A stretch of DNA of 64,000 nt. Origin: an uncultured Gammaproteobacteria bacterium. GTDB lineage: Bacteria > Patescibacteriota > Patescibacteriia > JAHIZJ01. The notes under the pieces were generated by a model. The model saw only the letters and a program-made list of their open reading frames with translations. It was not told the DNA's origin and made no database searches. The number at the start of each line of letters is the position of its first letter. The stretch's first letter is position 1. Where the stretch lies: NCBI GenBank assembly GCA_964594455.1, contig CAZQLY010000001.1:97-64096 (forward strand), read 5' to 3'. This document shows, in pieces, positions 2,903 through 48,982 of the stretch. The position numbers and the translations under genes are program-made.

Positions 2903-3571
2903 ATGGATATACACGGAATTATACTTTTAATTATTGCTGCTTTAGAGCTAATATTATTGCTTTATTTACTTTTTACTCGCTCAAAAGGGCATATTATATA
3001 TGCGTTTACCATATTTACGGTTGGGGTTATTTTTTGGGTGATGGGGAATGGTCTTTATCGTTTGGTAAAAACTAATGAGTTAGCATTTTTATGGATAGAT
3101 ATAAATCAATTTGCAGCCATGGTCATCGCGGTAGGATTGGTATATCTGTCGTTATCTTTTCCTTATTTAGAAAAAAGGATAACCAAAATAATACTGGCAG
3201 TGTGGGTTTTTATTTTGTTTGTTTTTGCGTACTTATTGTTTTTTACAGACTCTGTAATAAAAGGTGTATCTGGTCCAATCAGCGATCGTTTTGCTGAGAA
3301 AGGCTCGTTGTACCATATGTATGCGATAGTGTTTTTACTTATGTTTGTTTGGGCATTTGTTAACTTTTTTAAAAAGTACGGGCGAACCGCAGGTGTACAA
3401 AAGTGGCAAGTAGGAGTTCTGTCTGTAGGTTTAATTGGATCAGCAATCTTTGGCACTCTGTTTGATTTATTCCTGCCTTGGTTTGGCGGCCCTCAATATT
3501 TTTATCTGGGACCAGAATCTTCGGTCATATGGTTAGCTTTTACAGTCTATATTGTATTTAAAAAAGCTTAG
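2903..3571 (+). CDS. stand-alone multi-TM protein homologous to N-terminal 7TM sensor region of the downstream histidine kinase (paralog 1)
   Basis: 222 aa, about 6-7 TM helices. Pattern ...L(R/F)xxxKxxINxxFF...W(V)..(T)N... shared with paralogs 2/3 and residues 1-250 of the 6103-8859 kinase. Confidence 0.6.
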   Translation: MDIHGIILLIIAALELILLLYLLFTRSKGHIIYAFTIFTVGVIFWVMGNGLYRLVKTNELAFLWIDINQFAAMVIAVGLVYLSLSFPYLEKRITKIILAVWVFILFVFAYLLFFTDSVIKGVSGPISDRFAEKGSLYHMYAIVFLLMFVWAFVNFFKKYGRTAGVQKWQVGVLSVGLIGSAIFGTLFDLFLPWFGGPQYFYLGPESSVIWLAFTVYIVFKKA

Positions 3572-4195
3572 ATGGCTCTCCAAATCTACATTTTAATATT
3601 TGAGTCAATACTACTTTTACTCTTGGCTTTTTATGTTTGGCTGAGAAATCCAAAGCAAGCAATCAATATTTCATTTTTTGTAATGGTGCTGGGAGCGGCT
3701 GTTTGGGTTGGGACAAATGGTATTTTTGAAGAGACTCAGAGTCAGTTAATGGGAAGGCTCACTTTTACAGGTGCAATTATGATCGCTGCAGCATTCTTAT
3801 ATTTTTCATTTTTATTTCCTTACAAAGCTCGTTTTGTTAAATGGTATGTTCATTTATTATCAATAGTTCCTGCTGTTGTGCTTAATGCAGTTTTGTTTAC
3901 CTCTGATTTATTCGTGGGTGGAGTTATCTCTGAGGACACTATGGAACAAGGGCCTTTTTATCATGTGTTTGCGGTTTATTTTTTGATTATGTGGGCTTGG
4001 GGGATTTATAATTTAGTAGAAAAGTACAAAAGAGCAGACGGACTACATTACTGGCAATTAAAAAACACTTTTTATGCTTTAAGTGTTTCACTATTAGCAG
4101 GTGTTACTACCAATTTAGTAATGCCGTGGTTGTTTCACATACAATATTATGGTTGGGTCGGGCCAATGTTCTCAATAGTGTTTTTTGGTTCATAA
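3572..4195 (+). CDS. stand-alone 7TM sensor-domain paralog 2
   Basis: 207 aa. Near-identical to paralog 3 over WLRNPKQAINISFFVMV. Shares C-terminal motif HYWQLKNTFYALS...GWVGPMFSIVFFG. Confidence 0.6.
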   Translation: MALQIYILIFESILLLLLAFYVWLRNPKQAINISFFVMVLGAAVWVGTNGIFEETQSQLMGRLTFTGAIMIAAAFLYFSFLFPYKARFVKWYVHLLSIVPAVVLNAVLFTSDLFVGGVISEDTMEQGPFYHVFAVYFLIMWAWGIYNLVEKYKRADGLHYWQLKNTFYALSVSLLAGVTTNLVMPWLFHIQYYGWVGPMFSIVFFGS

Positions 4196-4223
4196 GCTAT
4201 ATACTGTTTAAGAAAAACGTTTA

Positions 4224-4880
4224 ATGGGATTGATTAATTACATTTTAATATTCGAAGCTATTTTACTTCTGTTTCTTGCTTTTTATGTTTGGTTGAGGAA
4301 CCCGAAACAGGCAATTAATATTTCTTTCTTTGTTATGGTTTTCGGATCGGCTATTTGGGTATTTAGTAATGCTACTGATTATGTTTATGAGAAACTATTT
4401 TTAACACAATTTACTTACATAGGAGCCATACTAATAGCTTCGGGGTTCTATTATTTTTCTTATTACTTCCCTTATAGAAGAAGTAGTATGAATATGATTT
4501 TAAGCTGGTTTGTGAATATTATCTCAGTTTTCTTGATAGCAAGTTTGTTTATTAACAATCTTTTTTATAGCAATATTAATTATAATGACGTTAATTCAAA
4601 GGTTTTTGCCGGACCCACATTTCACATATTTAATATATTTTTTATCGTTGTTTGGATCCTGGGAATTATAAATTTGATACTTAAATACAAAATTGCAGAT
4701 GGAATACACCATTGGCAGATAAAAAACACATTTTTTGCATTAAGCATATCGCTAGTAGCTGGAACAACAACGAATCTAATTTTGCCTTGGATATTTGATG
4801 TATGGACATTTGGCTGGGTCGGGCCTATGTTTTCAATCGTCTTTTTTGGGTTTTTGAGTTATATATTGTTTAAGAAGTAG
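4224..4880 (+). CDS. stand-alone 7TM sensor-domain paralog 3
   Basis: 218 aa tandem paralog. Confidence 0.6.
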   Translation: MGLINYILIFEAILLLFLAFYVWLRNPKQAINISFFVMVFGSAIWVFSNATDYVYEKLFLTQFTYIGAILIASGFYYFSYYFPYRRSSMNMILSWFVNIISVFLIASLFINNLFYSNINYNDVNSKVFAGPTFHIFNIFFIVVWILGIINLILKYKIADGIHHWQIKNTFFALSISLVAGTTTNLILPWIFDVWTFGWVGPMFSIVFFGFLSYILFKK

Positions 4881-4906
4881 TTATAAAACGGATATTAATA
4901 TTCTTT

Positions 4907-6097
4907 ATGAAGTATCTTAAAAAAAGCATTAGAGAGATTGATCACTTAGGAAATTATCCGATTATTGATACAATAGAATCCCCGATTGGTCCAAAGGTAA
5001 AAATAAAAGGAAGAGAGTATTTATTATTCAGTTCGAATAGTTATTTAGGCATTACTACAAATCAACGGGTTGTAAAATCTTCAATTAATGCAATAAAAAA
5101 ATATGGTACTGGCTCTGGTTCATCAAGAGTTGTTGCGGGTACATTTGATATTCACACCAAACTTGAAAATGAGATCGCGCTTTTCAAAGAAAAAGAAGCG
5201 GCCATGGTATTAACCAGCGGTTATTCTACAAATGTAAGTTTAATTCCTGCATTAGCCAATGTATTCTCTATATATGGAAAGAAACCAGAAATTGAAACAG
5301 TGATCTTTAGTGACAGACTTAATCACGCTAGTATAATTGATGGAATAAAATTATCCGGTTGTAGGGTAATTGTATACAATCACCGTGATATTATGTCTTT
5401 GGAAAAAGCACTTGAGGAAAACAAGGGTTGTCGCAAATTAATAATAACTGATAGTATTTTTAGCATGGATGGAGACATTGCACCTTTAGATAAAATAGTA
5501 GAATTAAAAAAAAGATACAGTGCCCTATTAATGATAGATGAAGCACACGCAACCGGAGTATTTGGTAAACATGGAAAAGGTATTGCTAACTTTTATAATG
5601 TTAGTAAAGATGTTGATATTATAATGGGCACATTAAGTAAATCTTTCGGGTCTATAGGAGCCTATGTTGCAGGTGATAATGATATTATTCGTTTATTAAA
5701 AGTATCTGTTAGAGGTTATGTTTTTTCTACAGCTCTTACACCACCAGATATTTCTACCAGTAGGGAAGTAATTGCAATACTTAATGAGAATCCCGATTAT
5801 CCTAAAAAGATATTAGATTTAGCTAATTATTTAAGAGTAGGATTAAACAAAATTGGGTTTAACACACTAGGTAGCGAAACACAAATAGTGCCAATACTCA
5901 TTGGTGATATGATCAAATCTTTAAAGTTTCAATCAGAATTAAAAAAAAGAAGAATTATTGCGCCATGTATTCAGTGGCCTGCAGTAGAAAGAGATAAGAG
6001 TAGAATACGTTTTTCGGTAATATTGACACACACAAAAGAAGATATTGACTTTTTAATAAAATCGTGTAGAGAAGTCAAAAACAAACTAAATATTTAA
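4907..6097 (+). CDS. PLP-dependent alpha-oxoamine synthase family acyltransferase (AONS/KBL/SPT/CqsA-like)
   Basis: 396 aa. PLP-lysine motif GTLSKSFGSIGAYVAG. Also ...DEAHATGVFG.. and N-terminal substrate region typical of the class II aminotransferase / alpha-oxoamine synthase family. Confidence 0.75.
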   Translation: MKYLKKSIREIDHLGNYPIIDTIESPIGPKVKIKGREYLLFSSNSYLGITTNQRVVKSSINAIKKYGTGSGSSRVVAGTFDIHTKLENEIALFKEKEAAMVLTSGYSTNVSLIPALANVFSIYGKKPEIETVIFSDRLNHASIIDGIKLSGCRVIVYNHRDIMSLEKALEENKGCRKLIITDSIFSMDGDIAPLDKIVELKKRYSALLMIDEAHATGVFGKHGKGIANFYNVSKDVDIIMGTLSKSFGSIGAYVAGDNDIIRLLKVSVRGYVFSTALTPPDISTSREVIAILNENPDYPKKILDLANYLRVGLNKIGFNTLGSETQIVPILIGDMIKSLKFQSELKKRRIIAPCIQWPAVERDKSRIRFSVILTHTKEDIDFLIKSCREVKNKLNI

Positions 6098-6102
6098 AAT
6101 CT

Positions 6103-8859
6103 ATGTTAAGTGTATTATTAATTATTGCCGGTTGTGGAGATATAATTTTAGGTTTGATTGTTTTGCGTGCGGGATACAAGAAGAAATCAAATGTATTGTT
6201 TTTTATTTTTGCATCTATTATTGGGATTTGGGTCTTAACAAATTTTCTAATTGGATATGGTGAAGATATATTTTGGTTAAAACTAGCATATGCTCTGGGG
6301 CCATTTATTTATTCATTGAGTTTAATATGGATACTCAATTTTCTATTTGGAAAAGTAAGAAGAACTTATCTTATCGCTATTTTAGTTATTTCTTTATCTT
6401 TTTCTGTATTATCATTTATTAATGGTTATATTGTTAAGGATGTTAATGAGTTATATGTGGGAGGGTTTGAGGGCGAACTGGGAATCTTTTTTCTTCCATA
6501 TACGGTTTTTTCTATTTTTATGACAGTACTAAATGTTGTTGCTGTAATATACGGAGTAAAAAAAAGTAAAGGACAAAGAAAACAGCAACTAGTATATGTA
6601 CTGTCCGGCTATTCTATTTTTGGTATAGGCGCTTTATTTGCTTCATTTATTTTGCCGTCTTTTGGATTCACTAAGTATATACCGTTAGATTCTGTGTCAT
6701 CGTTGGCTTTTTTAGGATTTACATCATACGCAATAGTAAGACATCGTTTATTAGATATTCGCATCATAGTTACAAGATCAGTAGTTTACTTCTTCCTGAT
6801 CCTGTTTGTTACTCTGGCGTTTACTACGATGACATTCTTGACCGGTTTGTTTATCCAAGAACTCGGCGGGTCTCAGACCTTTACTACGATATTGGTTTCA
6901 CTGATTATCGTATTTGGATTTGATCCGTTGAAACGCTTGCTGGGTCGGATCACAGATGCGGTATTCTTTAAGAGTGAGATTAACTACACAAAAGCCACCC
7001 AGATATTGACTCAGATGATCAGCACCAAGATTGAGCTGGACGAGGTTATTAATTCTACCAATGAGAAGCTAAAGGATATATTAAAAATCAAAGAAGCTAA
7101 TATTCTAATTCAAACAAAGAATAAGCAATCCTTTGTTTTGCGTAAAAACGGCAATAGCAATGGTCGTTCCTTGAGACTGGACTCAAAAAGCTCCTTAGCA
7201 GCCTATGTAATAAATAGGCAAAAGATATCCGTCTTGGAAGAATTGGAGCGCCGGATATCTGATACTACCAATGATCGGGAGCGTAAGAAGCTGGAACGCT
7301 CGCGCTCGGACTTCGAAGCGCTGGGTGCGGATGTGGTGGCGCCGATCATCCTGGAGGGTGAGGTGACCGGCCTTTTTGTGCTCGGCGGCAAGCGCTCTGG
7401 CGATACTTACAACAATAATGATCTAAATATTCTCAACACCCTGGGGCCTTTGATGGGTTCGGCGATCGAGAAATCCAGGCTTTATGATGAGGTGAAATCA
7501 TTTGGTGAAAAGATGAAAGTCGAGGTGGAAAGAGCCACAGCTGATCTCCAGCTGGCCAATGTCGAGCTGAAGAATCGCAATGTTTATTTGAATGCCTTGC
7601 AGAATATCGGCAATATCATCACGCGCTCGCTTGATTTCAAAAAAGTTACCCAGACCATTGCCGATGGCATATCCACTGAGCTGGGCTATATCGGCGGCGT
7701 GATTATTCTGAAAGGCGAAGGCGAGACTACTCATCCGGCTGCGATGACTATGACTACGCTGACCCGAGCCGCCTTGAAACTCTTGCCCAAGAAGCTTCCT
7801 GAGTTCAAGGGCAAACTTTCTGACAAAGATCTGGCCACTGAAGCCATGCGTTCCGGGACTACCCAGATCAGTGACAAGCTGGCTGATTTCTTGAATCCGC
7901 CCATTCCCAAAGCTATTTGCGCAGCCATGCAGAAGTTGGTCAAAGCCCAGACCATCATTGCCGTGCCCATCCCTTCAGAGGTCGCTATCATCGGCAGTAT
8001 TGTTTTCGTCATCCAGAAGCCGAAGAGGGAAGTATCTGAAGACGAAGTCCAGATGATGAAAGCCTTGGCTGACCAGATGGGTATCGTGACCAGAAACGTG
8101 CAGTTGGTCGAAGAACTGCGCGATACAAATTTGGAACTAGAAAAAGCTAACGAGCATTTAAAAGAATTGGACGAAGCCAAAAACGAATTTATATCTATTG
8201 CCTCGCACCAATTGCGTACGCCTTTGACTGGAATCAAAGGCTATCTAGCCATGATTGTGGATGGCGACTTTGGCAAGGTACCGGCCCAAATGTTTGATAT
8301 TTTGAAACAAGTATTGGAAGCTTCGAAGCGCATGATCCGTTTGGTTAACCTATTCTTGAACATTACCAAGATCGAAGCTGGCAAATTCACCCTGGAAAAG
8401 AAACCAACTGACATAGTAGAATTAGTCCAATCGGAAATAACTGAATTGATCAAAGTAGCCGAAGATAAGGGCTTGAAAATAGAATTCAAAAAACCAAAAA
8501 CTAAACTGCCTGATGTTACGATCGACGGTGATAAACTAAAAGACGTGGTGCTGAATTTGATCGACAATGCTATCAAGTATACAGACAAAGGAAAGATAAC
8601 TGTTTCAGTGGAGAAACTGAACGGTGATGTGCGCGTCTCTGTCAAAGATACCGGCCGGGGTATTCCGCATGATGATGCCAAAAAACTTTTCTCCAAATTC
8701 GTACGTGGTGAGGGTATAGCTCAAGTTCAGCCAGATGGCTCTGGACTAGGTCTTTATATCGCTAAACGCATAGTTGATGCTCACAAGGGCGAGATTTGGG
8801 TGGAGAGCGAAGGATTGGGTAAGGGTTCAACGTTTATCTTCACAATCCCAGCGAAATAG
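6103..8859 (+). CDS. sensor histidine kinase (N-terminal 7TM domain, GAF-like domains, HisKA, HATPase_c; no receiver)
   Basis: 918 aa. H-box SIASHQLRTPLTGIKGY. N/G boxes LIDNAIKYT, DTGRGIP, GSGLGLYIAKRIV. Confidence 0.85.
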   Translation: MLSVLLIIAGCGDIILGLIVLRAGYKKKSNVLFFIFASIIGIWVLTNFLIGYGEDIFWLKLAYALGPFIYSLSLIWILNFLFGKVRRTYLIAILVISLSFSVLSFINGYIVKDVNELYVGGFEGELGIFFLPYTVFSIFMTVLNVVAVIYGVKKSKGQRKQQLVYVLSGYSIFGIGALFASFILPSFGFTKYIPLDSVSSLAFLGFTSYAIVRHRLLDIRIIVTRSVVYFFLILFVTLAFTTMTFLTGLFIQELGGSQTFTTILVSLIIVFGFDPLKRLLGRITDAVFFKSEINYTKATQILTQMISTKIELDEVINSTNEKLKDILKIKEANILIQTKNKQSFVLRKNGNSNGRSLRLDSKSSLAAYVINRQKISVLEELERRISDTTNDRERKKLERSRSDFEALGADVVAPIILEGEVTGLFVLGGKRSGDTYNNNDLNILNTLGPLMGSAIEKSRLYDEVKSFGEKMKVEVERATADLQLANVELKNRNVYLNALQNIGNIITRSLDFKKVTQTIADGISTELGYIGGVIILKGEGETTHPAAMTMTTLTRAALKLLPKKLPEFKGKLSDKDLATEAMRSGTTQISDKLADFLNPPIPKAICAAMQKLVKAQTIIAVPIPSEVAIIGSIVFVIQKPKREVSEDEVQMMKALADQMGIVTRNVQLVEELRDTNLELEKANEHLKELDEAKNEFISIASHQLRTPLTGIKGYLAMIVDGDFGKVPAQMFDILKQVLEASKRMIRLVNLFLNITKIEAGKFTLEKKPTDIVELVQSEITELIKVAEDKGLKIEFKKPKTKLPDVTIDGDKLKDVVLNLIDNAIKYTDKGKITVSVEKLNGDVRVSVKDTGRGIPHDDAKKLFSKFVRGEGIAQVQPDGSGLGLYIAKRIVDAHKGEIWVESEGLGKGSTFIFTIPAK

Positions 8860-9094: not shown

Positions 9095-10711
9095 ATGAAA
9101 GACAATAATCCACAGGGTCTATCCACAATCGCGCTAGTATTAATCACAATAGTTGTGATCGCATCCGCGGGTTTGATTTGGTGGGAATTCAATAAACAGG
9201 AAACCGAAGAAGACAACGTGGTTATTAATAGCCAAACCAATACTACAGAAAATGTTAATTCTTCTGTTAATACCTCAGATTGGCTGACTTATACAAATGA
9301 TGAGTATGGGTATTCACTTAATTACCCAAGCACGTGGTTTATGGAAGAGCGAGTAATAACTTATGAAAATAATAATGTTGATCAGGCATATTGGTATATA
9401 AATATTACTCCCGAAAACCCAAGTCAGAGTGATATTCAAACACAGTTTGCCATCACTCTATTTAATGCCTTGTCAGACGAAGCACCTGATCAAACATTTC
9501 TACGCGTAACGGGTAAAGATATATCTAATCTGAATAAAGAAATAAAGAATGTTGATGGACTTGAAGGATATTATTACAAAGATGTGCCTGCACTTACTCC
9601 ATACAATATGATACTAATTGAAAAAGATAATTTGTTATTTTCTTTAGAACAAGGAGAAATTTCAGAAGACGATTATTTCGATATTATCGATAACGTTCAG
9701 TTTATAGATAGTAATGTAGATACTTCTAGTTGGTTGATTTACACGAATGAGGAGTATGGGTACTCTTTTGAGTATCCACAGAACTATCAAGTGAAGGAAT
9801 TAGTAAATGTTGATGTAGAGGGGTATGTGAATTTAAGTAATAATGATGCAAGTATGAGTTTATATGTCATGGACGGACCGCTTGATCCTATGCATATCCA
9901 AGGTATATATGGAGAAAGGACAGCCGATGAAATAACTACGGTATCTGTTAGTCTCCAAACGGGATATCAATATCGTGAAGGAGATGCGGGGTGTGGTGGA
10001 GATAACGTCCAAACATCATTAACGAATGGCATGATATTAAAGATACAGTTTACTGAATGTATGGATACAACAAATATCCTGTATTCAAATATTGCTTTGC
10101 GCAATCAAATCTTATCAACATTTGTATTTTTTGATAGTTCAGTTGACGTTAATTCCATGTTAAACTCTAACACTAATTCCAATACAAGCAGTAATACAAA
10201 TTCAAGTAATACTAATGAATCAGAAAGCACGGGAGATAAATCATCTGAACCAGAAGATGAAGATATTAATGATTCGTCCTGGTCCGTCTATGAAAATGAT
10301 TTGAGGAAATTTAGGATACAGTATCCCGGTGGCTGGGAGGCTGTTGAGTATCAGGATTATACAGTGGGGTTTCAGCCAGAGGGGTGCTCGTATTATGAAA
10401 CTTATCCAAGCGATACAGCTTATCCGATTCATATTTCGTATAGTACGGATCATAAATCAATCCAATCTATTTTAAAAAACCACCCCACAGATTACTATGA
10501 TAAATATGAACTTGGCAACGTTACTGGTTATGGTATATACGAAGATTATGATGATATTGAACAGGTTTATGCACCGGTGCCCGCAAGCCGAACAGTATTT
10601 ATACAAGGGCAGTATTATGTCGAGACCGAGGATGATTGTACAATGGACAAGGAATATTTTCGTAATACATATTTATCTATGTTAGAGACATTTGAAGTCA
10701 TTGAGGATTAA
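9095..10711 (+). CDS. membrane-anchored exported protein with N/S/T-rich linkers and two copies of a conserved W..Y.N.EYG(Y/F)S..YP module
   Basis: 538 aa. N-terminal TM helix. Repeats DTSDWLTYTNDEYGYSLNYP and DTSSWLIYTNEEYGYSFEYP. Low-complexity SNTNSNTSSNTNSSNTNESE. Confidence 0.55.
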   Translation: MKDNNPQGLSTIALVLITIVVIASAGLIWWEFNKQETEEDNVVINSQTNTTENVNSSVNTSDWLTYTNDEYGYSLNYPSTWFMEERVITYENNNVDQAYWYINITPENPSQSDIQTQFAITLFNALSDEAPDQTFLRVTGKDISNLNKEIKNVDGLEGYYYKDVPALTPYNMILIEKDNLLFSLEQGEISEDDYFDIIDNVQFIDSNVDTSSWLIYTNEEYGYSFEYPQNYQVKELVNVDVEGYVNLSNNDASMSLYVMDGPLDPMHIQGIYGERTADEITTVSVSLQTGYQYREGDAGCGGDNVQTSLTNGMILKIQFTECMDTTNILYSNIALRNQILSTFVFFDSSVDVNSMLNSNTNSNTSSNTNSSNTNESESTGDKSSEPEDEDINDSSWSVYENDLRKFRIQYPGGWEAVEYQDYTVGFQPEGCSYYETYPSDTAYPIHISYSTDHKSIQSILKNHPTDYYDKYELGNVTGYGIYEDYDDIEQVYAPVPASRTVFIQGQYYVETEDDCTMDKEYFRNTYLSMLETFEVIED

Positions 10712-10750: not shown

Positions 10751-11500
10751 ATGGTAGAAAACATTAACCAATCATCACCCAAAGGTAATAAAACAGGCCT
10801 AATCATCCTAATCCTGGCTGCTGTCATTGTAATCGCTGGAGGTTTATGGTACGCCTTGGCTGGAACTGATGAAAATACCAACAATGAAAATAATACCAAC
10901 ACTGTAGCCAATGAGAATGCAAACACGAATGTTAATACCAACACTGCAGCAAACACCAACGCAGAAACAAATTCCAATACCAATACTGCAACCAACACCA
11001 ATTCCTCTGTGGATACTTCTGATTGGCTGACTTATACGAATGAGGAGTATGGGTTTAGTTTTAAATATCCACAGGATTGGAAGCAAGAATATATATTTGA
11101 AAACGATAGTACGAAAACTGTATATGAGAAACCGCTTCAATATTCACTTATTACAAGTGCTGATGGAAATTATGAGCTTGTATTGGGTGTAAAACGTACA
11201 AACGATAAGGGAACAATTTACTATAGAACTGGTATTGGCGCAGGAGACATCAGTGAAGGTGATCCAATAATAATTATGAATACGAGCATAAGTACATGGA
11301 AGCGCGTTTTTGAGGACAAAGTTGTAGAAATTTTCCTTTTTCCAGTTGAAGAGGGAGTTTCACCAAACATAATAAACAATCACGAAGTGATAGCTAGCTT
11401 TAGTATAGTGAATAGTGATACCTTAAATTCACCTAATCTGGTTGATACTAACGAGTATAGAATAGTGCTTTCAATACTACAGTCATTGGAAGTATCATGA
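10751..11500 (+). CDS. paralog of the 9095 family (TM anchor, NTNT-rich linker, W-module)
   Basis: 249 aa. Module VDTSDWLTYTNEEYGFSFKYPQDW. Confidence 0.55.
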   Translation: MVENINQSSPKGNKTGLIILILAAVIVIAGGLWYALAGTDENTNNENNTNTVANENANTNVNTNTAANTNAETNSNTNTATNTNSSVDTSDWLTYTNEEYGFSFKYPQDWKQEYIFENDSTKTVYEKPLQYSLITSADGNYELVLGVKRTNDKGTIYYRTGIGAGDISEGDPIIIMNTSISTWKRVFEDKVVEIFLFPVEEGVSPNIINNHEVIASFSIVNSDTLNSPNLVDTNEYRIVLSILQSLEVS

Positions 11501-11583
11501 GGACCCTCTTATTAGCTAGATAGATATACTATCTAGCTAATTTGGAGGCTTTGTTCTTTCACAACCAAAAAAGGAGTCTTACG

Positions 11584-12162
11584 ATGAAAGGGACTCTGTT
11601 TATTCTAGGGTTGCTGGTCCTGGTACTTTGTTTTCCGGTACCATCAATGGCTGGTGATGAGTCGTGTTGTGGACATTCATCTCCAGGTAACCCTTACCTT
11701 TGCTATGGAGATGGAAATTGTACCTGGTGGGCGTGGCACTGCCGTCAAGATCTACCAGCATGGAGTGGTAATGCTGCAACTTGGCTAGCTAATGCTGAAA
11801 ACGATGACATCGACACTGGAACGACACCACTAGTGGGAAGCATCGCTTGTTTCCCAAATATGGCCGGAGGTGCAGGACACGTTGCCTGTGTTACAGCAGT
11901 ACACCTCGACGGTTCATTTGATGTAACGGAAATGAATTGTTGGCCAGGGTTTAATGGTGTTGATGCAAGGCTCTACTCATCGGGAAGCGCTACAGGCTTC
12001 ATCTACGGCGGCCCGGTCAACATGTATAGTCTCACCTACGCCGGTCAGTCTCCGACAGATCCATCCGGGATTCTGAAGCTCCGTCCTCTGGAGACCGTGA
12101 ACTGCTGGCTGGATGTGAATGTATTGAGCGGTAGTGCCCCGATCTCCAGCATGATACAATAA
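11584..12162 (+). CDS. secreted CHAP-domain amidase/peptidase (peptidoglycan hydrolase)
   Basis: RBS AAAAGGAG upstream. Signal peptide. CHAP catalytic Cys context GNCTWWAWHCRQD and His GAGHVACVTAV. High G+C. Confidence 0.65.
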   Translation: MKGTLFILGLLVLVLCFPVPSMAGDESCCGHSSPGNPYLCYGDGNCTWWAWHCRQDLPAWSGNAATWLANAENDDIDTGTTPLVGSIACFPNMAGGAGHVACVTAVHLDGSFDVTEMNCWPGFNGVDARLYSSGSATGFIYGGPVNMYSLTYAGQSPTDPSGILKLRPLETVNCWLDVNVLSGSAPISSMIQ

Positions 12163-12282: not shown

Positions 12283-12984
12283 ATGAACAACCTAAACCAA
12301 AAAGGGTTATCAACAACAACTTTAACTATTATTATCCTGGCAATTATTATTATTGCCGGAGGTTTATGGTACGCTCTTTCCGGAACCAATGACAATACCA
12401 ACAATTCTAATAACACCAACACTGTAGCAAATGGGAATGCAAACATGAATGTGAATACCAGCACTGCGGTAAACACCAACACAGAAACAAATTCCAATAC
12501 TAATACTTCAACCAACACCAATTCGTCTGTTGATACTTCGGATTGGGAACTATACGTTAACTCTAATCATAATTTTAGCCTAAAATTTCCCAGAGACTGG
12601 GGGTTTATCAGTGAATTTGATGGTAGTTTTAATCCTGATATTTTGAGCGCATCCTATATGACAACAAGTTCGTTTGTTACGGGTACAGAAGATTCTGGAC
12701 TAATGTTGTCATTTACATTTGGCAGTGGTAAAACGATAAACGATATATTGAATGAGGTTCATACGACCTCTGAAGGAAGTAGCAAACTGGTTATAAGTCA
12801 TAAAGAAGTAACTTTATCCTCAGGTACATCTACTACAGTGGTTAAATACGATCCTACGATAAAAGGACATACAACAGAGTATTTGTTTCAAACTGACTCT
12901 GGTGTGATTGCATTGGGTCTTTTATCAGAGAACGATGAAACTGTTATGGTTTTGAATACCTTTTTATTGGTTAGTAACCCATAA
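12283..12984 (+). CDS. paralog of the 9095/10751 family
   Basis: 233 aa. N-terminus and linker nearly identical at the DNA level to the 10751 gene. Module VDTSDWELYVNSNHNFSLKFPRDW. Confidence 0.55.
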   Translation: MNNLNQKGLSTTTLTIIILAIIIIAGGLWYALSGTNDNTNNSNNTNTVANGNANMNVNTSTAVNTNTETNSNTNTSTNTNSSVDTSDWELYVNSNHNFSLKFPRDWGFISEFDGSFNPDILSASYMTTSSFVTGTEDSGLMLSFTFGSGKTINDILNEVHTTSEGSSKLVISHKEVTLSSGTSTTVVKYDPTIKGHTTEYLFQTDSGVIALGLLSENDETVMVLNTFLLVSNP

Positions 12985-13063: not shown

Positions 13064-15379
13064 ATGAAGTGGTTTATTTTCGCAGGCGTTATTATGGGTT
13101 CGTTATTCGTTGGAATCCAGGAATGCAGTGGTTACGCTTGTCCATTGATTGAGATGGAGCTTGTTCAGGGGTTTGGTGGCACGCACGTAGGTGCAGATTA
13201 CGATGCAGATGCTGGTGACCACGTCTATGCCCTTGCTGATGGTAGGGTGTGCTTCTACAAAAGTGATGCAAGTTGTATGGGGGGAGGTAATGGCAAGGAC
13301 TGTGATTGTGTGGATGGGGAAGTAATCTTTGTTCGTCATCAAAAACCCAGTGGGACCTACTTCATCGCGATGTATGGTCATATTAAGAACGTCCCGTCTG
13401 AATTTGCTGCAATCACGCAATACACTGAGAGTGGGCCCATTGTAGAAGCAGGGGAACAGATTGCTGAGATTGGTGTTTATGCTCCTTGTAGGGACTGTAG
13501 TCCTCGTTGCGATCACCTTCATCTGGGGATCTGGGATAGCGAAAACCAAATGCCATCTAGTGGATGGGGATATGGTAATGCATGCTATAAAAATCCTTCA
13601 GGTTGCTGGGTTGCTCCTGAGTCATTTCTAGGAACCTGTACTGATCCTCAGGTCCTCACCTTCCTTACTTCTTTCGTCGACTTCACTGTCCAGGAAGAAG
13701 GACCGTACTTTCCCAACCAGGTGATTCATTGCACTATGAGATGGAAGAATGAGGGAAGTGCCACTTGGTCAAGCACTCCGGGTGACAACTACGTTGAATT
13801 GGGTTCGTGTAACATCAACCAGAACATCGTACCTAGCTGGCTCTATGATTCTAGCTTGGGTTGGATCAGCAACTTGGTGCCGTGTACATTCGATGGAGAC
13901 GATGTCGGCCCAGGCGAGACTGCGACATTTGCTTTCCCTGGCAAGATTCCGAGTGATGCTCAAGCAGGACAGACGCCGGTTTACTTCGGCGCTGTCTACG
14001 ATGCGGCTATCATGGAGGAATGGGAAGGTAACGGTATCACTCTGACAATCGTCGAAACTCAGCCTGCCCCTGAAAACACCCCTGACGTCGTTCGGCTGAG
14101 GCCGGATGGAGAAGGGGGGTGTGATTTCCGGGTAGCAGCCAGTGATGGAGATGATGCCTACGACTATGGTTCCTGGCTGGCCATTGATTGGATGCCGGAT
14201 ACCTGGTTTGTGGCAGATGTGCACAACGATGGTCTGGATGATCTGGTCTTGGTCCGGGGCGATGACATCTACGTGTCTAAGTCCTATGACGACCATTTCC
14301 GAGACTCGCCATTGCTCTGGAAGTCCAATTGGGGCAATCCGTCCGGCACCTACGGCTATCTGCCGTGGATGTACTACGGAGACAGCCGGGTTGATCTGAT
14401 CCATTACCGGGCAGTCAGCGCCACCCAGGTCAGATGGTGGGGACTGAAGTCGATGGACACCTACTATTCGGATTTGGGTGTGTTGGTCAGCAATGCTGGC
14501 AACCAGAGTGATTACTTTTTCAGCGTTGGTTCATTCCATGGGCAACGCCGGGAGGATATCATCTTTGGCCGGAGACTTTCTGGGTCAAACCAGCTGCACT
14601 ACCGGGTCAGTGAGCAGATTACGGATGGCAGTTTCCAGGATAACGGATGGTGGGATGGCAATTTCGGGTTCTACTATTCTCGCATCCTGGTGGCTGACAT
14701 TGACGGCGATGACTATGACGATCTGGTGGGCGTGACTCATCAGGGCAGCGATGTCATGCGGGTAACCTGGGGCCGGAATACTCACAGCGAATCGTTCACT
14801 TATGGTTCTCTTCTGAGTTCCGACTTTGGCAACGGTGACAGCCAGTACTTCATTGCTGACGTTGACCAAGATGGCCACGATGATCTCATCTATGTCGGTG
14901 GCAACGGCAATATCTATTGGGCCAGGACCTATCACGATGGATCCGCCTGGAGACTTTCTTCTCGAAACACCTGGATCAACTACTTTGCCCAGGGATCGGC
15001 TGATGAGTTCAGGTTCGGCAACGTGACCGATCAGATCCCAAGCGGTCAGGGCAGGTTTACTCCTGAGAATCCGGGAGTGAGCTTGAAGGAAGTGGCGACA
15101 ACCACTCAGCCGGGTGTTTCCAGACTGCAGCTGTCAGCTTCACCCAACCCCACCAACCTCTCCACGGTCATTGCCTATGCCTTGCCGCAAGCCGGCCAGG
15201 TGAATCTGAGTGTCTACAACGTGGCTGGACGTTTGGTCAAGACGTTGGTCGACTGCCGACAGCCAGCGGGCGAGTACAGCGTTACTTGGGACTCAAAGCA
15301 GGAGGACTTTGGGATCTACTTCTGCCGCCTCAGCTTGGGGAACGATCTTTCCTCTCGGAAAATCGTTCTGCTGAAGTGA
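13064..15379 (+). CDS. secreted multidomain protein: N-terminal M23 peptidase, FG-GAP/VCBS-like repeats, C-terminal T9SS-type (Por_Secre_tail / FlgD-Ig-like) sorting domain
   Basis: RBS AAAGGAGAG upstream. M23 motifs HVGADYD and HLHLGIWD. Repeats D.H/D.DG.DDL(V/I). C-terminus ...NVAGRLVKTLVD...YSVTWDS...GIYFCRLSLGN...KIVLLK matches the T9SS CTD consensus. About 57% G+C. Confidence 0.7.
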   Translation: MKWFIFAGVIMGSLFVGIQECSGYACPLIEMELVQGFGGTHVGADYDADAGDHVYALADGRVCFYKSDASCMGGGNGKDCDCVDGEVIFVRHQKPSGTYFIAMYGHIKNVPSEFAAITQYTESGPIVEAGEQIAEIGVYAPCRDCSPRCDHLHLGIWDSENQMPSSGWGYGNACYKNPSGCWVAPESFLGTCTDPQVLTFLTSFVDFTVQEEGPYFPNQVIHCTMRWKNEGSATWSSTPGDNYVELGSCNINQNIVPSWLYDSSLGWISNLVPCTFDGDDVGPGETATFAFPGKIPSDAQAGQTPVYFGAVYDAAIMEEWEGNGITLTIVETQPAPENTPDVVRLRPDGEGGCDFRVAASDGDDAYDYGSWLAIDWMPDTWFVADVHNDGLDDLVLVRGDDIYVSKSYDDHFRDSPLLWKSNWGNPSGTYGYLPWMYYGDSRVDLIHYRAVSATQVRWWGLKSMDTYYSDLGVLVSNAGNQSDYFFSVGSFHGQRREDIIFGRRLSGSNQLHYRVSEQITDGSFQDNGWWDGNFGFYYSRILVADIDGDDYDDLVGVTHQGSDVMRVTWGRNTHSESFTYGSLLSSDFGNGDSQYFIADVDQDGHDDLIYVGGNGNIYWARTYHDGSAWRLSSRNTWINYFAQGSADEFRFGNVTDQIPSGQGRFTPENPGVSLKEVATTTQPGVSRLQLSASPNPTNLSTVIAYALPQAGQVNLSVYNVAGRLVKTLVDCRQPAGEYSVTWDSKQEDFGIYFCRLSLGNDLSSRKIVLLK

Positions 15380-30344: not shown

Positions 30345-30897
30345 AGGCCTTAAGAAGACCGGATGGTTGCTCCATTGTGTGTAATAAGCGATGGGGAGGA
30401 AAGTCCGAACACCCCTGCGTTTTTCAAGGCGTAGGAGCATGGCACCTTCGAAAAGAAGGCGGAAATAAGCAAAGGATACAAAAAGTTCTATAGACTTTTT
30501 GGATTCTAACCAAGCCCAGGGAAAGTGTCACAGAGACTATACCGCTCTCCTTTCCGTTAATGACTTGGCGGATTGGACAGTAAGGGTGAAAAGAGTGGGC
30601 CCACCTAAGCGTGGGATAGCTCGCTTCGGCGGGTAAAGTAAGAGCCCACAGGTTCGGTTAGTAATAACCGAATGTGACAAACCCTGCCTGGTGCAAGACC
30701 GAGTAGGCCCCGACCGTTAAGGCCAGGGGCGGGTAGGTTGCTAGAGCCCCGCAGCAATGTTGGGCCCAGATAGATGACCATCCACCTACGCCCTTCGGGT
30801 TTCGGCGGACGCAGTCCAATAATTTAAGGACAGCGTCACTCGAAGCTCGGAGAGCGTAGAGTGACAGAATTCGGCTTATAGGTCTTCTTAAGGCATT
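30345..30897 (+). ncRNA. rnpB: RNase P RNA (bacterial type), unusually long (about 550 nt)
   Basis: P4/CR-I GGAGGAAAGUCCGAACAC. AGGGUGAAA.G...GGGCCCACC. CAGAUAGAUGACCAUCCAC. ACAGAAUUCGGCUUAUAGGUC. P1 pairing 30347-60 with 30881-94. Confidence 0.8.
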
Positions 30898-47805: not shown

Positions 47806-48576
47806 TTGTACCAAATATTTATGAATGATCAAACTGTCAAAACTGGTTTACTTTGGAGCGGTGTAGACAACATGCCAGCCATTATCTTGATTCATGGTTT
47901 TACAGGCAGTCCATACGAGTTAGAAGGGTTTGCTGAACAGCTTAATCATGCGGGTTTTACTGTTTTGAGGTCAAAGCTGGCTGGACATGGAACTACTCCA
48001 GCAGATTTAAATAAACAAAAGGAGACCGATTGGATTAAGGGGTTAGTAGCTGAATACCAACAACTGTCGGCTCGTTATAACACTATCTACATTGTAGGTA
48101 TCTCGTTTGGGGGAGTTGTGGCCCTGGAGGCAATCAGGAGAAAGCTGATCGACCCCAAAGGGATTATTACGATCAGCACTCCGGTTTTTATGCCCAAGGA
48201 AAAATCCCAAAAATGGGTGGTACCGATTTTACGCTATTTAAAAAGAAGTGTTAAAAAATCTTGGGTCAAACCAGAGGATTATGGAAAGTATGAGGAGTGG
48301 AAAGTGTACACAAAAATTCCTTTGCACGCCCTATATTATTCAAACAAACTGACCGTAATGGTAAGGGAAAGGCTCAACGAAATATCATTGCCCATAATGA
48401 TAATTCATTCAAAGAAAGATCCCGTAGTTGATTCGCTCAATGCTGAATATCTTTACAACCGTATTGGATCTAGTAATAAGATATTGGAATTAACAGAGGA
48501 GCCCAATCACAGTATCTGGAAAGTAAATACGGTACAAATTGTAGAAAAGATTATGCAATTTATTAAAACAACATAG
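47806..48576 (+). CDS. alpha/beta hydrolase (carboxylesterase/monoacylglycerol-lipase-like)
   Basis: LIHGFTGSPYE and GISFGG (GxSxG). Probable true start ATG 47821. Confidence 0.65.
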   Translation: MYQIFMNDQTVKTGLLWSGVDNMPAIILIHGFTGSPYELEGFAEQLNHAGFTVLRSKLAGHGTTPADLNKQKETDWIKGLVAEYQQLSARYNTIYIVGISFGGVVALEAIRRKLIDPKGIITISTPVFMPKEKSQKWVVPILRYLKRSVKKSWVKPEDYGKYEEWKVYTKIPLHALYYSNKLTVMVRERLNEISLPIMIIHSKKDPVVDSLNAEYLYNRIGSSNKILELTEEPNHSIWKVNTVQIVEKIMQFIKTT

Positions 48577-48577
48577 T

Positions 48578-48982
48578 ATGAAGAACTCAATTCTTTTAGT
48601 CGAAGACGAACGTGATTTGATCAAAATGTATCGAGATATATTTAACCGGCACAAAAAGTTTGATTTACTGACAGCCGAGAATAAAGTTGATGGGATACAA
48701 ACGATCAAGAAACATCAGCCAGGGGTTATTTTGCTGGATTTAATAATTCCAGAGGAGCCAGGCGGAATGGTGGCTTATGACCAAAGAGTGGGATTTGATT
48801 TATTACGAGAAATTAGATCTGAACCGAATTTAAATAAATTGAGATTCTTTGTATTCAGCAATATTGATACACACGAAGACCGCCAAACTTCAGATGAGTT
48901 GGGCGTTCAGGAATATTTGTTGAAAGCTGATTATACACCAACTGGGTTGATCAAAAAGTTAGAAAAAAACATTATCGGATGA
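48578..48982 (+). CDS. stand-alone response-regulator receiver domain (CheY-like)
   Basis: ILLVEDE...VILLDLIIP and conserved Asp pocket. Confidence 0.7.
   Translation: MKNSILLVEDERDLIKMYRDIFNRHKKFDLLTAENKVDGIQTIKKHQPGVILLDLIIPEEPGGMVAYDQRVGFDLLREIRSEPNLNKLRFFVFSNIDTHEDRQTSDELGVQEYLLKADYTPTGLIKKLEKNIIG

Follow-up and report, generated by a model that had tools for sequence, protein, structure and literature searches.

Does a synthase gene that lies directly beside a membrane histidine kinase gene produce the signal that the kinase reads? This question was raised by a locus on contig CAZQLY010000001.1 (assembly GCA_964594455.1), from which one stretch of 64 kb, hereafter the window, was analyzed. 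At positions 2903-8859 of the window, a gene for a pyridoxal 5'-phosphate (PLP)-dependent alpha-oxoamine synthase (AOS) directly precedes a gene for a polytopic membrane histidine kinase, just as such genes adjoin each other in the alpha-hydroxyketone quorum-sensing systems CqsA/CqsS of Vibrio and LqsA/LqsS of Legionella. A first-pass annotation had called the locus CqsA/CqsS-like. We found that this label fails as family membership, but is well supported as an analogy. In the reading that we prefer, to which we assign a probability of roughly one half, the locus is a synthase-receptor signalling module that follows the CqsA/CqsS logic with other protein families: a multi-subunit kinase with seven-transmembrane (7TM) domains would sense a lipid-like aminoketone or sphingoid product in the membrane.

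The window has the look of a Patescibacteria genome: its genes lie nearly all on one strand, its RNase P RNA is long, and the closest named homologs are from metagenome-assembled genomes (MAGs) of Patescibacteria. The module consists of five co-directional open reading frames (ORFs) on the + strand, separated by gaps of 0, 28, 26 and 5 nt. Its features, with a tentative leader and a candidate regulator encoded elsewhere in the window, are as follows.

2740-2902, + strand: putative promoter and leader of the operon, tentative (consensus scan, sequence reading, RNA fold)
2903-3571, + strand: protein a, stand-alone HisKA_7TM protein, 222 aa (PF16927, 41.5 bits; 28% identity to b)
3572-4195, + strand: protein b, stand-alone HisKA_7TM protein, 207 aa as called (PF16927, 54.7 bits; transmembrane helix 7, TM7, shortened by a 1-nt frameshift)
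4224-4880, + strand: protein c, stand-alone HisKA_7TM protein, 218 aa (PF16927, 46.5 bits; 53% identity to b)
4907-6097, + strand: AOS, 396 aa, predicted PLP-dependent acyl-thioester:amino-acid C-acyltransferase of the radiation of BioF, Kbl and serine palmitoyltransferase (SPT); codon of Lys245 at 5639-5641
6103-8859, + strand: 7TM-GAF-GAF histidine kinase, 918 aa (ORF list, Pfam)
6103-6747, + strand: HisKA_7TM-type sensor domain of the kinase, aa 1-215 (hhalign 99.6%; homologs with PF16927; helix pattern in AlphaFold2, AF2)
6751-6966, + strand: TM8 and TM9/linker of the kinase, aa 217-288, leading the chain back to the cytoplasm (AF2 secondary structure and hydropathy; predicted local distance difference test, pLDDT, 50-70)
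7033-8097, + strand: two cytoplasmic GAF domains of the kinase, about aa 311-456 and 490-665 (Pfam GAF_3, GAF_2 and GAF; boundaries of the second approximate)
8176-8853, + strand: transmitter of the kinase, HisKA at aa 692-760 with the phospho-acceptor His in SHQLRTPL (56.7 bits) and HATPase_c at aa 808-917 (104.8 bits)
48578-48979, + strand: candidate partner response regulator, a single-domain CheY-like receiver, 133 aa (Response_reg, 46.6 bits)

The genomic contexts of nine AOS relatives with 42-63% identity, from Patescibacteria and one Omnitrophota, were fetched. In all nine, the AOS gene was found directly upstream of a histidine kinase gene or with one enzyme gene in between. The kinase adjoining the AOS was detectably of the HisKA_7TM type in eight of the nine, and the usual order was on the same strand with gaps of 1-36 nt. 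Extra 7TM proteins and a single-domain regulator were common in these modules, the number of stand-alone 7TM copies ranging from 0 to 5. The gene orders are given below, with SDR for short-chain dehydrogenase/reductase and ADC for acetoacetate decarboxylase.

L001: four stand-alone 7TM genes, AOS, SDR, 7TM-GAF-kinase
L002: five 7TM genes, AOS, SDR, kinase, regulator
L003: 7TM genes, AOS, kinase
L004 (Pacebacteria): AOS, 7TM-kinase, 7TM protein, regulator
L005: acyltransferase, AOS, ADC-like gene, 7TM-kinase, epimerase-type SDR
L006: 7TM-GAF protein, AOS, 7TM-kinase, regulator
L170 (Omnitrophota MAG, GCA_043808095.1): acyl-ACP-reductase-like gene, AOS, ADC-like gene, 7TM-GAF-kinase, regulator, GAF-HD protein
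L171: divergently transcribed 7TM-HisKA gene, AOS, kinase
L172: FadD-like ligase and ABC transporter upstream, then AOS, 7TM-kinase, regulator

In L171, PF16927 was not called by Pfam in the kinase next to the AOS, and the domain was detected with a custom 7TM hidden Markov model (HMM); the divergent gene on the other side of the AOS encodes HisKA_7TM and HisKA. Since L170 belongs to Omnitrophota, the linkage reaches beyond the candidate phyla radiation (CPR).

As a background control, we used 160 AOS loci with 32-43% identity among the matches listed by scans of genome and metagenome contigs. Among these listed matches, a 7TM gene was present within 5 kb in only 5 of the 160; four of the five were at 40-43% identity and the other (L118) at 35%, and one came from a Saccharibacteria MAG. 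Kinases adjoined the AOS in six of the listed matches, and five of the six had this same 7TM domain. The arrangement is kept down to 42% AOS identity and in a second phylum, and it is rare among the ordinary AOS genes listed, which supports the view that synthase and kinase are a functional unit and not chance neighbors. The first-pass annotation had left this adjacency to a survey of relatives, and had offered as its alternative a BioF- or SPT-like enzyme only coincidentally beside the kinase. The enzyme does cluster with BioF, Kbl and SPT, as described below, but the coincidence did not survive the survey. Such clustering together with a biotin or sphingolipid gene context had been named as evidence against signalling; of the two, only the clustering was found. 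Neither bioA, bioB, bioD nor a threonine dehydrogenase gene was next to the AOS in the 13 linked loci examined, and a canonical sphingolipid gene context was not seen among the relatives.

We then asked to which family the synthase belongs. The AOS with the PLP-lysine motif TLSKS(FG), which the first-pass annotation had recognized, was confirmed as a match to Aminotran_1_2 (PF00155; 183 bits, E 1e-53) in Pfam. Alignment to the solved Thermus AOS, Sphingobacterium SPT and Coxiella Kbl indicated that the catalytic set is kept: His140, Asp211, His214, Thr242, the PLP-lysine Lys245 and Arg368. These six residues are invariant across the clade of module enzymes, which also have in common an insertion of about 10 residues near aa 117-127. 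With a full-length fold, the PLP lysine, the stacking His, the Asp/His pair and the carboxylate-binding Arg, the enzyme is catalytically intact as judged by its residues.

Among NCBIfam models, the highest scores were obtained with the BioF-Kbl family (391 bits), BioF (TIGR00858; 389.3 bits, cutoff 426.45) and Kbl (NF005394; 364.9 bits, cutoff 460). The SPT models gave 340 bits for NF047600 (cutoff 640), 287 for NF047599 (cutoff 500) and 209 for NF047603 (cutoff 670). The CqsA/LqsA-type model NF005526 ranked ninth with 206.8 bits (cutoff 428), behind models of BioF/Kbl, BioF, Kbl, SPT and 5-aminolevulinate synthase. The enzyme was thus under every curated equivalog cutoff. Against PDB, the best match was the Thermus BioF/Kbl enzyme (263 bits, full length), followed by Sphingobacterium SPT (259 bits), with CqsA at 96 bits. 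Identity was 21.8% to V. cholerae CqsA (P0303), 26.9% to E. coli BioF, 30.8% to E. coli Kbl, and 37-41% to Bacillus Kbl-type and Bacteroidales-type enzymes; the CqsA, CqsS, BioF and Kbl references were confirmed by exact match to named database entries. Many homologs are automatically annotated as 8-amino-7-oxononanoate synthase. By these sequence comparisons, the AOS falls in the BioF/Kbl/SPT radiation and not in the CqsA family, contrary to the first-pass annotation. The broad-specificity BioF/Kbl AOS of Thermus thermophilus (PDB 7poa, 8s1y) is the best solved match and all catalytic residues align with it, but it differs by the clade insertion at aa 117-127 and by an entirely different genomic context.

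In a neighbor-joining tree of 170 AOS sequences with the verified CqsA, BioF and Kbl, a single pure clade took in 13 of the 15 linked enzymes, and the AOS of the window had Bacteroidales-type enzymes as neighbors. Bootstrap values were 11/100 for this clade, 33/100 for a core of nine and 100/100 for the four closest loci. Because of the weak bootstrap, neither monophyly of the linked enzymes nor a sister relationship to SPT is claimed.

The enzymes encoded beside the AOS in sister loci give a hint of the chemistry. The SDR immediately downstream of the AOS in L002 best matched the 3-ketodihydrosphingosine reductase KdsR (244 bits, cutoff 400; top of 207 families), and that of L001 best matched OleD, a 2-alkyl-3-oxoalkanoate reductase. 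The ligases of L089 and L172 best matched long-chain fatty-acid-CoA ligases (315 and 346 bits). Lyso-lipid acyltransferases (PlsC-like) were found in L005 and L118, and a long-chain acyl-ACP-reductase-like gene in L170. Between AOS and kinase, L005 and L170 both have an ADC-family protein, and the two are 38% identical. As far as sequence matches can tell, the tailoring genes of the sister modules are consistently of a long-chain-lipid type.

These genes also fit the main rival explanation, in which an SPT-like AOS would supply the membrane of the cell itself with a structural sphingoid or aminolipid. The 7TM kinase would simply be co-regulated with the enzyme and respond to the general state of the bilayer or to another membrane or environmental cue, and the small proteins would serve in lipid handling or as scaffolds, not as receptors of the product. 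As in bacteria with SPT and KdsR (Sphingobacterium, Bacteroides), the AOS is a near-top match to an SPT, with Bacteroidales-type neighbors in the tree, and the KdsR-like reductase, FadD-like ligases and PlsC-like acyltransferases of sister loci together resemble a ceramide-type route. HisKA_7TM kinases exist without an AOS, and the single-domain regulators leave no obvious autoinduction loop. However, each locus has at most 1-2 tailoring genes and never a full lipid pathway, with no complete ceramide pathway at any locus and no reductase in the window, and the scores stay far under the SPT and KdsR cutoffs (340 vs 640, 244 vs 400). The constant partner of the AOS is a sensor kinase, not lipid-synthesis genes. 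Such specific pairing with one sensor family (five of the six AOS-adjacent kinases in the listed background) is hard to explain if the kinase ignores the product, and the conserved positions of the small proteins match kinase sensor domains and no enzyme family. On balance, we consider a purely structural role of the lipid unlikely, though it keeps a real share of the probability.

The 918-aa multi-transmembrane histidine kinase just downstream of the synthase, on the same strand after 5 nt, is as the first-pass annotation had described it, and was found to contain a 7TM region and two GAF domains. It has HisKA and HATPase_c, as expected of a class I histidine kinase, and Pfam found no Response_reg, and so no receiver domain, in its 918 aa. 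The three upstream membrane proteins had been described as homologs of the kinase N-terminus without a kinase part. Each of them exceeded the Pfam gathering threshold of PF16927 (28.6 bits), and Pfam found neither a kinase part nor an output domain in them. Their homology to the kinase held up, but is more remote than had been implied. By BLASTP, the kinase N-terminus matched b with 20% identity over 197 aa (E 5e-5) and a with 36% over 88 aa, and gave nothing significant against c; PF16927 was not called in it by Pfam at E<0.1. When a profile of 18 stand-alone proteins of the window and sister loci was compared with a profile of seven kinase N-termini by hhalign, the probability of homology was 99.6% (E 5.9e-24, 216 columns), so that the match covers the full length of the membrane domain. 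Homologs of the kinase N-terminus at 32-37% identity also bear PF16927. These comparisons indicate that the three small proteins are true, if remote, paralogs of the kinase sensor domain. The motif blocks that had been quoted for each of them belong mainly to b and c, protein a being only 28% identical to b. Copy c is a recent duplicate of b.

AF2 predicted seven helices in matching order, and a beta-hairpin after the fourth of them and before the fifth, both for copy b (pLDDT 88, predicted template modelling score 0.84) and for the kinase N-terminus (pLDDT 72). In the kinase, two more helices (aa 217-288) follow the seven (aa 1-215) before the first GAF domain. Positions W45, N49, G67, G127, Y152, G157, Q162 and P185 are conserved, and are the same in stand-alone and kinase-fused forms. 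The positive-inside rule would put the N-terminus outside and the RNPK and KYKRADGxHxWQ motifs in cytoplasmic loops 1 and 3. The predicted fold is a bundle with the topology of G protein-coupled receptors (GPCRs), to which its fold matches belong (Foldseek E ~1e-2, identity below 12-16%); this likeness is a resemblance to a receptor-type fold only, and not homology or membership. A reading of the domain as a CREST/PAQR-type hydrolase, prompted by a weak Per1 match (E 0.048), was rejected, as no His/Asp metal-binding set is conserved and the fold matches are GPCRs.

With regard to HisKA_7TM kinases and 7TMR-DISM sensors, the small proteins score above the PF16927 threshold and the N-terminus of the kinase counts as a divergent member. 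Unlike in the HisKA_7TM family generally, a subset is here tied to a dedicated synthase and to arrays of output-less paralogs. In the searchable literature, only census-type papers on HisKA_7TM were found, with no ligand assigned. We collected 8,060 cluster representatives of the family at E<=1e-3 and counted architectures in the best 150 of the 8,060: 51 were stand-alone, 49 7TM-kinase, 28 7TM with another tail, 14 7TM-7TM-kinase, 3 7TM-7TM with a tail, 2 7TMx4-kinase, 2 7TM with a split kinase-core match and 1 7TM-7TM. The 7TMx4-kinase fusions match the 3+1 count of the window, and by this Rosetta-stone argument the separate 7TM subunits would work together with the kinase. An AOS gene beside the fused kinases P0163 (four 7TM domains) and P0136 (two) was looked for, and none was there. 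The paralog lineages appear from sequence to be old and kept as orthologous pairs between genomes: L001 and L002 have orthologous pairs of up to 50% identity, and paralogs within one genome are mostly 25-32% identical. The output-less arrays and the fused 2x and 4x forms suggest a modular multi-subunit receptor, a design undescribed for histidine kinases in the searchable literature.

Copy b ends 11 residues early (4175-4223). Past its stop, the +2 frame reads FWFISYILFKKNV* to about position 4221, in agreement with the C-terminus of the orthologs, FFGFLSYILFKKNV. It follows that a T-run has a 1-nt insertion or deletion, which would be a true truncation of TM7 or else a homopolymer error; an independent Logan assembly has the same 207-aa product.

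Rather than subunits of a co-receptor, the three small proteins might be decoys or sinks for the ligand, or exporters or flippases of the lipid. Their lack of any output domain, the variation in copy number from 0 to 5 between loci, and the frameshift in copy b, which suggests relaxed constraint on at least one copy, are consistent with such roles. However, two or four 7TM domains are fused to a kinase in 16 of the best 150 of the 8,060 representatives, which speaks for several bundles acting jointly in one receptor, the distinct lineages are kept as orthologs, and no transporter-like motif or family was matched in the small proteins by Pfam or NCBIfam. We therefore regard roles outside the receptor as rather doubtful.

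The resemblance of the module to CqsA/CqsS has a history in the literature. Synthase-kinase adjacency in CPR was noted in silico by Bernard et al. 2020 (PMC7567580) in 51 cases, as pairs of a "CqsA homolog" and a kinase. The first-pass annotation had considered a system of this kind surprising for an organism with a reduced genome, a remark which is thereby outdated. In the supplement of that study, the CPR hits had about 28% identity to LqsA and their best reference match was glycine C-acetyltransferase at about 47%; AOS subfamilies were not separated and 7TM paralogs were not mentioned. In the Vibrio system, the acyl-derived ligand CAI-1 is bound in the outer-leaflet part of CqsS, at a site formed from two protomers, and CqsA binds CqsS directly (PMC13174287); the coupling of synthase and receptor is functional and even physical. 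CqsS has six TM helices that run directly into the dimerization and histidine phosphotransfer (DHp) domain, and it has a receiver domain (PMC13174287).

A CqsS-like sensor, as the first-pass annotation had proposed, was not found in the window. The membrane domain of V. cholerae CqsS (P0288) gave no PF16927 match at E<=1, scored -6.9 bits against the 7TM profile and reached 0.2% in hhalign, as shuffled sequences did; CqsS-type models gave no match to the kinase N-terminus. Unlike the six-TM CqsS, the window sensor has 7+2 helices in a GPCR-like bundle without sequence similarity. Two GAF domains lie between its membrane part and the DHp, and it has no receiver, in contrast to the hybrid kinase CqsS with its C-terminal receiver. 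Stand-alone sensor paralogs accompany the kinase, unlike in CqsS and LqsS, and the synthase is of another AOS subfamily than CqsA. The searchable literature does not appear to describe the 7TM identity, the array of paralogs or the lipid context.

True alpha-hydroxyketone quorum sensing of the CAI-1/LAI-1 type, as proposed for CPR (PMC7567580) and by the first-pass annotation for this locus, would mean that the aminoketone is converted to a diffusing 3-hydroxy-4-ketone which the kinase reads. The layout, with a synthase gene beside a membrane sensor kinase, is the same, and the in-silico precedent in CPR speaks for it. CAI-1 maturation includes a reduction step, and SDR reductases follow the AOS in L001 and L002. 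However, among reductase models the best match is to a ketosphinganine reductase, the AOS lies outside the CqsA/LqsA family (207 vs 428 bits; 21.8% identity; 96 vs 263 bits in PDB), the table in PMC7567580 itself ranks glycine C-acetyltransferase over LqsA, and the sensor is unrelated to CqsS in sequence, helix count and architecture. This explanation is improbable. The published annotation is corrected accordingly: the "CqsA/CqsS" pairs of CPR are not orthologs of the Vibrio system, and alpha-hydroxyketone chemistry or cross-talk with Vibrio and Legionella should not be taken at face value for them.

That the AOS is a housekeeping BioF or Kbl of biotin or threonine/glycine metabolism standing beside the kinase by chance is very improbable: it would agree with the top NCBIfam scores (391, 389 and 365 bits) and with the automatic names of homologs, but the scores are under all three curated cutoffs, no biotin or threonine dehydrogenase gene adjoins the AOS in any of the 13 linked loci, the SDRs beside the AOS best match KdsR and OleD rather than a threonine dehydrogenase, and the HisKA_7TM linkage spans two phyla and is about 30-fold rarer among the ordinary BioF/Kbl-type loci listed.

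We thus return to the synthase-receptor reading, in which the steps would be as follows. The AOS would condense an amino acid with a medium- or long-chain acyl thioester to a lipid-like alpha-aminoketone, similar to 3-ketosphinganine. In sister genomes, one extra enzyme may reduce, decarboxylate or acylate this product. Being hydrophobic, the product would partition into the membrane and be bound inside or between the GPCR-shaped HisKA_7TM bundles of a multi-subunit receptor, made up of the 7TM domain of the kinase and the three stand-alone paralogs. TM8-9 and the two GAF domains would relay ligand occupancy to the HisKA/HATPase core, which would phosphorylate a single-domain CheY-like regulator. 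We infer the substrate, the product, its role as the ligand, the 7TM hetero-oligomer and the partner regulator, and the signal may serve either quorum sensing or an autocrine or membrane-homeostasis cue.

The regulators of the modules in L002, L004, L006, L170 and L172 are single receiver domains. In the 64-kb window, 48578-48979 is the only receiver gene and the sole match of a receiver HMM built from these module regulators. Its product has 32-33% identity to the regulators of L002 and L004, which resemble each other to about the same degree. By this likeness, it is the putative partner of the kinase. Since it consists of a single domain, its output would go through protein-protein interaction and not through direct DNA binding, and in this it would differ from the LuxU/LuxO and LqsR relays.

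Several points weigh against the synthase-receptor reading. HisKA_7TM kinases often occur without an AOS nearby, as in L168 and L169 (the terminal 402-aa gene of L169 is PLP-decarboxylase-like and not an AOS), hence the 7TM domain is not dedicated to AOS products. Co-transcription fits equally well a kinase that regulates the synthase and senses something else. The substrate and product of the AOS cannot be read from its sequence; it is about equally distant from Kbl-type and SPT-type enzymes (37-41%), and its deep phylogeny is weakly supported. The accessory-enzyme matches are all under curated cutoffs. When the 64-kb window was searched by phmmer with ten accessory proteins of sister loci, no gene for a reductase, a ligase, an acyltransferase or an ADC was found, so the aminoketone would here stay as it is, unless it is modified by an unlinked enzyme. 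In Patescibacteria, fatty-acid synthesis is generally absent, which leaves the acyl donor unexplained. The GPCR matches have a weak Foldseek E value, and a likeness of fold is no proof of ligand binding. Finally, copy b is truncated in TM7, and the proposed regulator is encoded 40 kb from the kinase.

The base composition of the module was uneven. Of 44 ORFs (median 0.40), the AOS had the lowest GC content at third codon positions (GC3), with 0.21. In codons 1-200 of the kinase, GC3 was 0.18-0.30, and it rose to 0.57-0.64 in the GAF region of the kinase. The low-GC3 block (4907-6700, as opposed to 6900-8859) therefore crosses the gene boundary. L001, L002 and L003 have the same pattern, with 0.26-0.38 in AOS, SDR and kinase sensor and 0.66-0.77 in the rest of the kinase, and recent horizontal transfer as the sole cause was rejected for this reason. 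The block is reminiscent of the specificity cassettes for signal and sensor in comQXP of Bacillus and agrBDC of Staphylococcus, where the signal-synthesis gene and the membrane sensor of the kinase likewise form one unit distinct from the cytoplasmic part. Those systems, however, use peptide signals and unrelated proteins, and the evidence here is compositional.

A broader proposal may be put forward tentatively, and as a whole it is more apt to fail than to hold. The HisKA_7TM family, with more than 8,000 clusters, might be a family of GPCR-shaped multi-subunit lipid receptors. In Patescibacteria and Omnitrophota, a BioF/Kbl/SPT-like synthase might make a sphingoid-like aminoketone ligand from scavenged, possibly host-derived, fatty acids, giving a self-signalling or host-sensing circuit independent of CqsA/CqsS, with the low-GC3 block as a co-inherited cassette of signal and receptor specificity. 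If the reading holds, a very large orphan family of bacterial 7TM sensors would have its first candidate class of ligands, and with it a synthase that is genetically paired to the sensor. Acyl-aminoketone synthases and in-membrane sensor kinases would then have been brought together at least two times, from unrelated parts. Patescibacteria, whose host-cell interactions are poorly understood and which are without their own fatty-acid synthesis, would gain a concrete signalling circuit.

The leader has a sigma-70-like site, TTGCCG-17-TATAGT with TG, by consensus scan, and, with a strong Shine-Dalgarno sequence, a mini-ORF of 26 codons whose product is rich in Lys, Thr and Gln, MDMKKLTRKTQSQTKKVNQASLSRPL. 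A terminator-like 10-bp hairpin at 2859-2881 and its T-run end some 20 nt ahead of the first ATG; they could form an attenuator or just the terminator of the upstream gene. A conserved riboswitch or attenuator was rejected, because the fold was not significant (z -0.7), was not kept in L001-L003 and had no Rfam match.

Some linked loci differ further from that of the window. Beyond CPR, in L170 and in L089/L090, the module is extended by a regulator and a GAF-HD (HD-GYP-like) protein, which suggests a cyclic-di-GMP output. L170 has three HisKA_7TM kinases within 13 kb. In a distant linked locus (L008:9205-10380), the 7TM domain after the AOS is fused to DUF835 and not to a kinase, and a separate PAS kinase and six receiver-domain genes follow.

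Four antisense ORFs of 62-168 aa lie on the minus strand at 7203-8696, inside the high-GC3 part of the kinase gene; given this composition, they are probably artefacts and not genes. The regulator ORF at 48578-48979 overlaps the 3' end of an alpha/beta-hydrolase gene (47806-48576; Hydrolase_4/S33), and is followed by a lytic-transglycosylase-like gene and then by FtsE/FtsX genes.

The module is flanked by genes for secreted cell-wall hydrolases, namely two M23 peptidases and one CHAP-domain protein (1122-2093, 11542-12162 and 13064-15379), with a GC content of 0.50-0.52 compared with the window average of 0.42. The 771-aa M23 protein also matched FG-GAP, FlgD-Ig and, below threshold, Por_Secre_tail, a type IX secretion system (T9SS) sorting domain, an odd match in a genome that looks like one of Patescibacteria. 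Shortly downstream of the kinase, at 9095-10711, 10751-11500 and 12283-12984, lie the genes of three paralogous proteins that are predicted to be secreted or anchored. They have a hydrophobic segment at the N-terminus, a low-complexity linker rich in Asn and Thr, and a repeated SSVDTSDW-x-YTNEEYG-F/Y-S motif, and two of them gave a weak match to PsbP_2. A class A bacterial RNase P RNA was found at 30351-30894; it is 544 nt long against a model of 367 positions, and therefore has large insertions.

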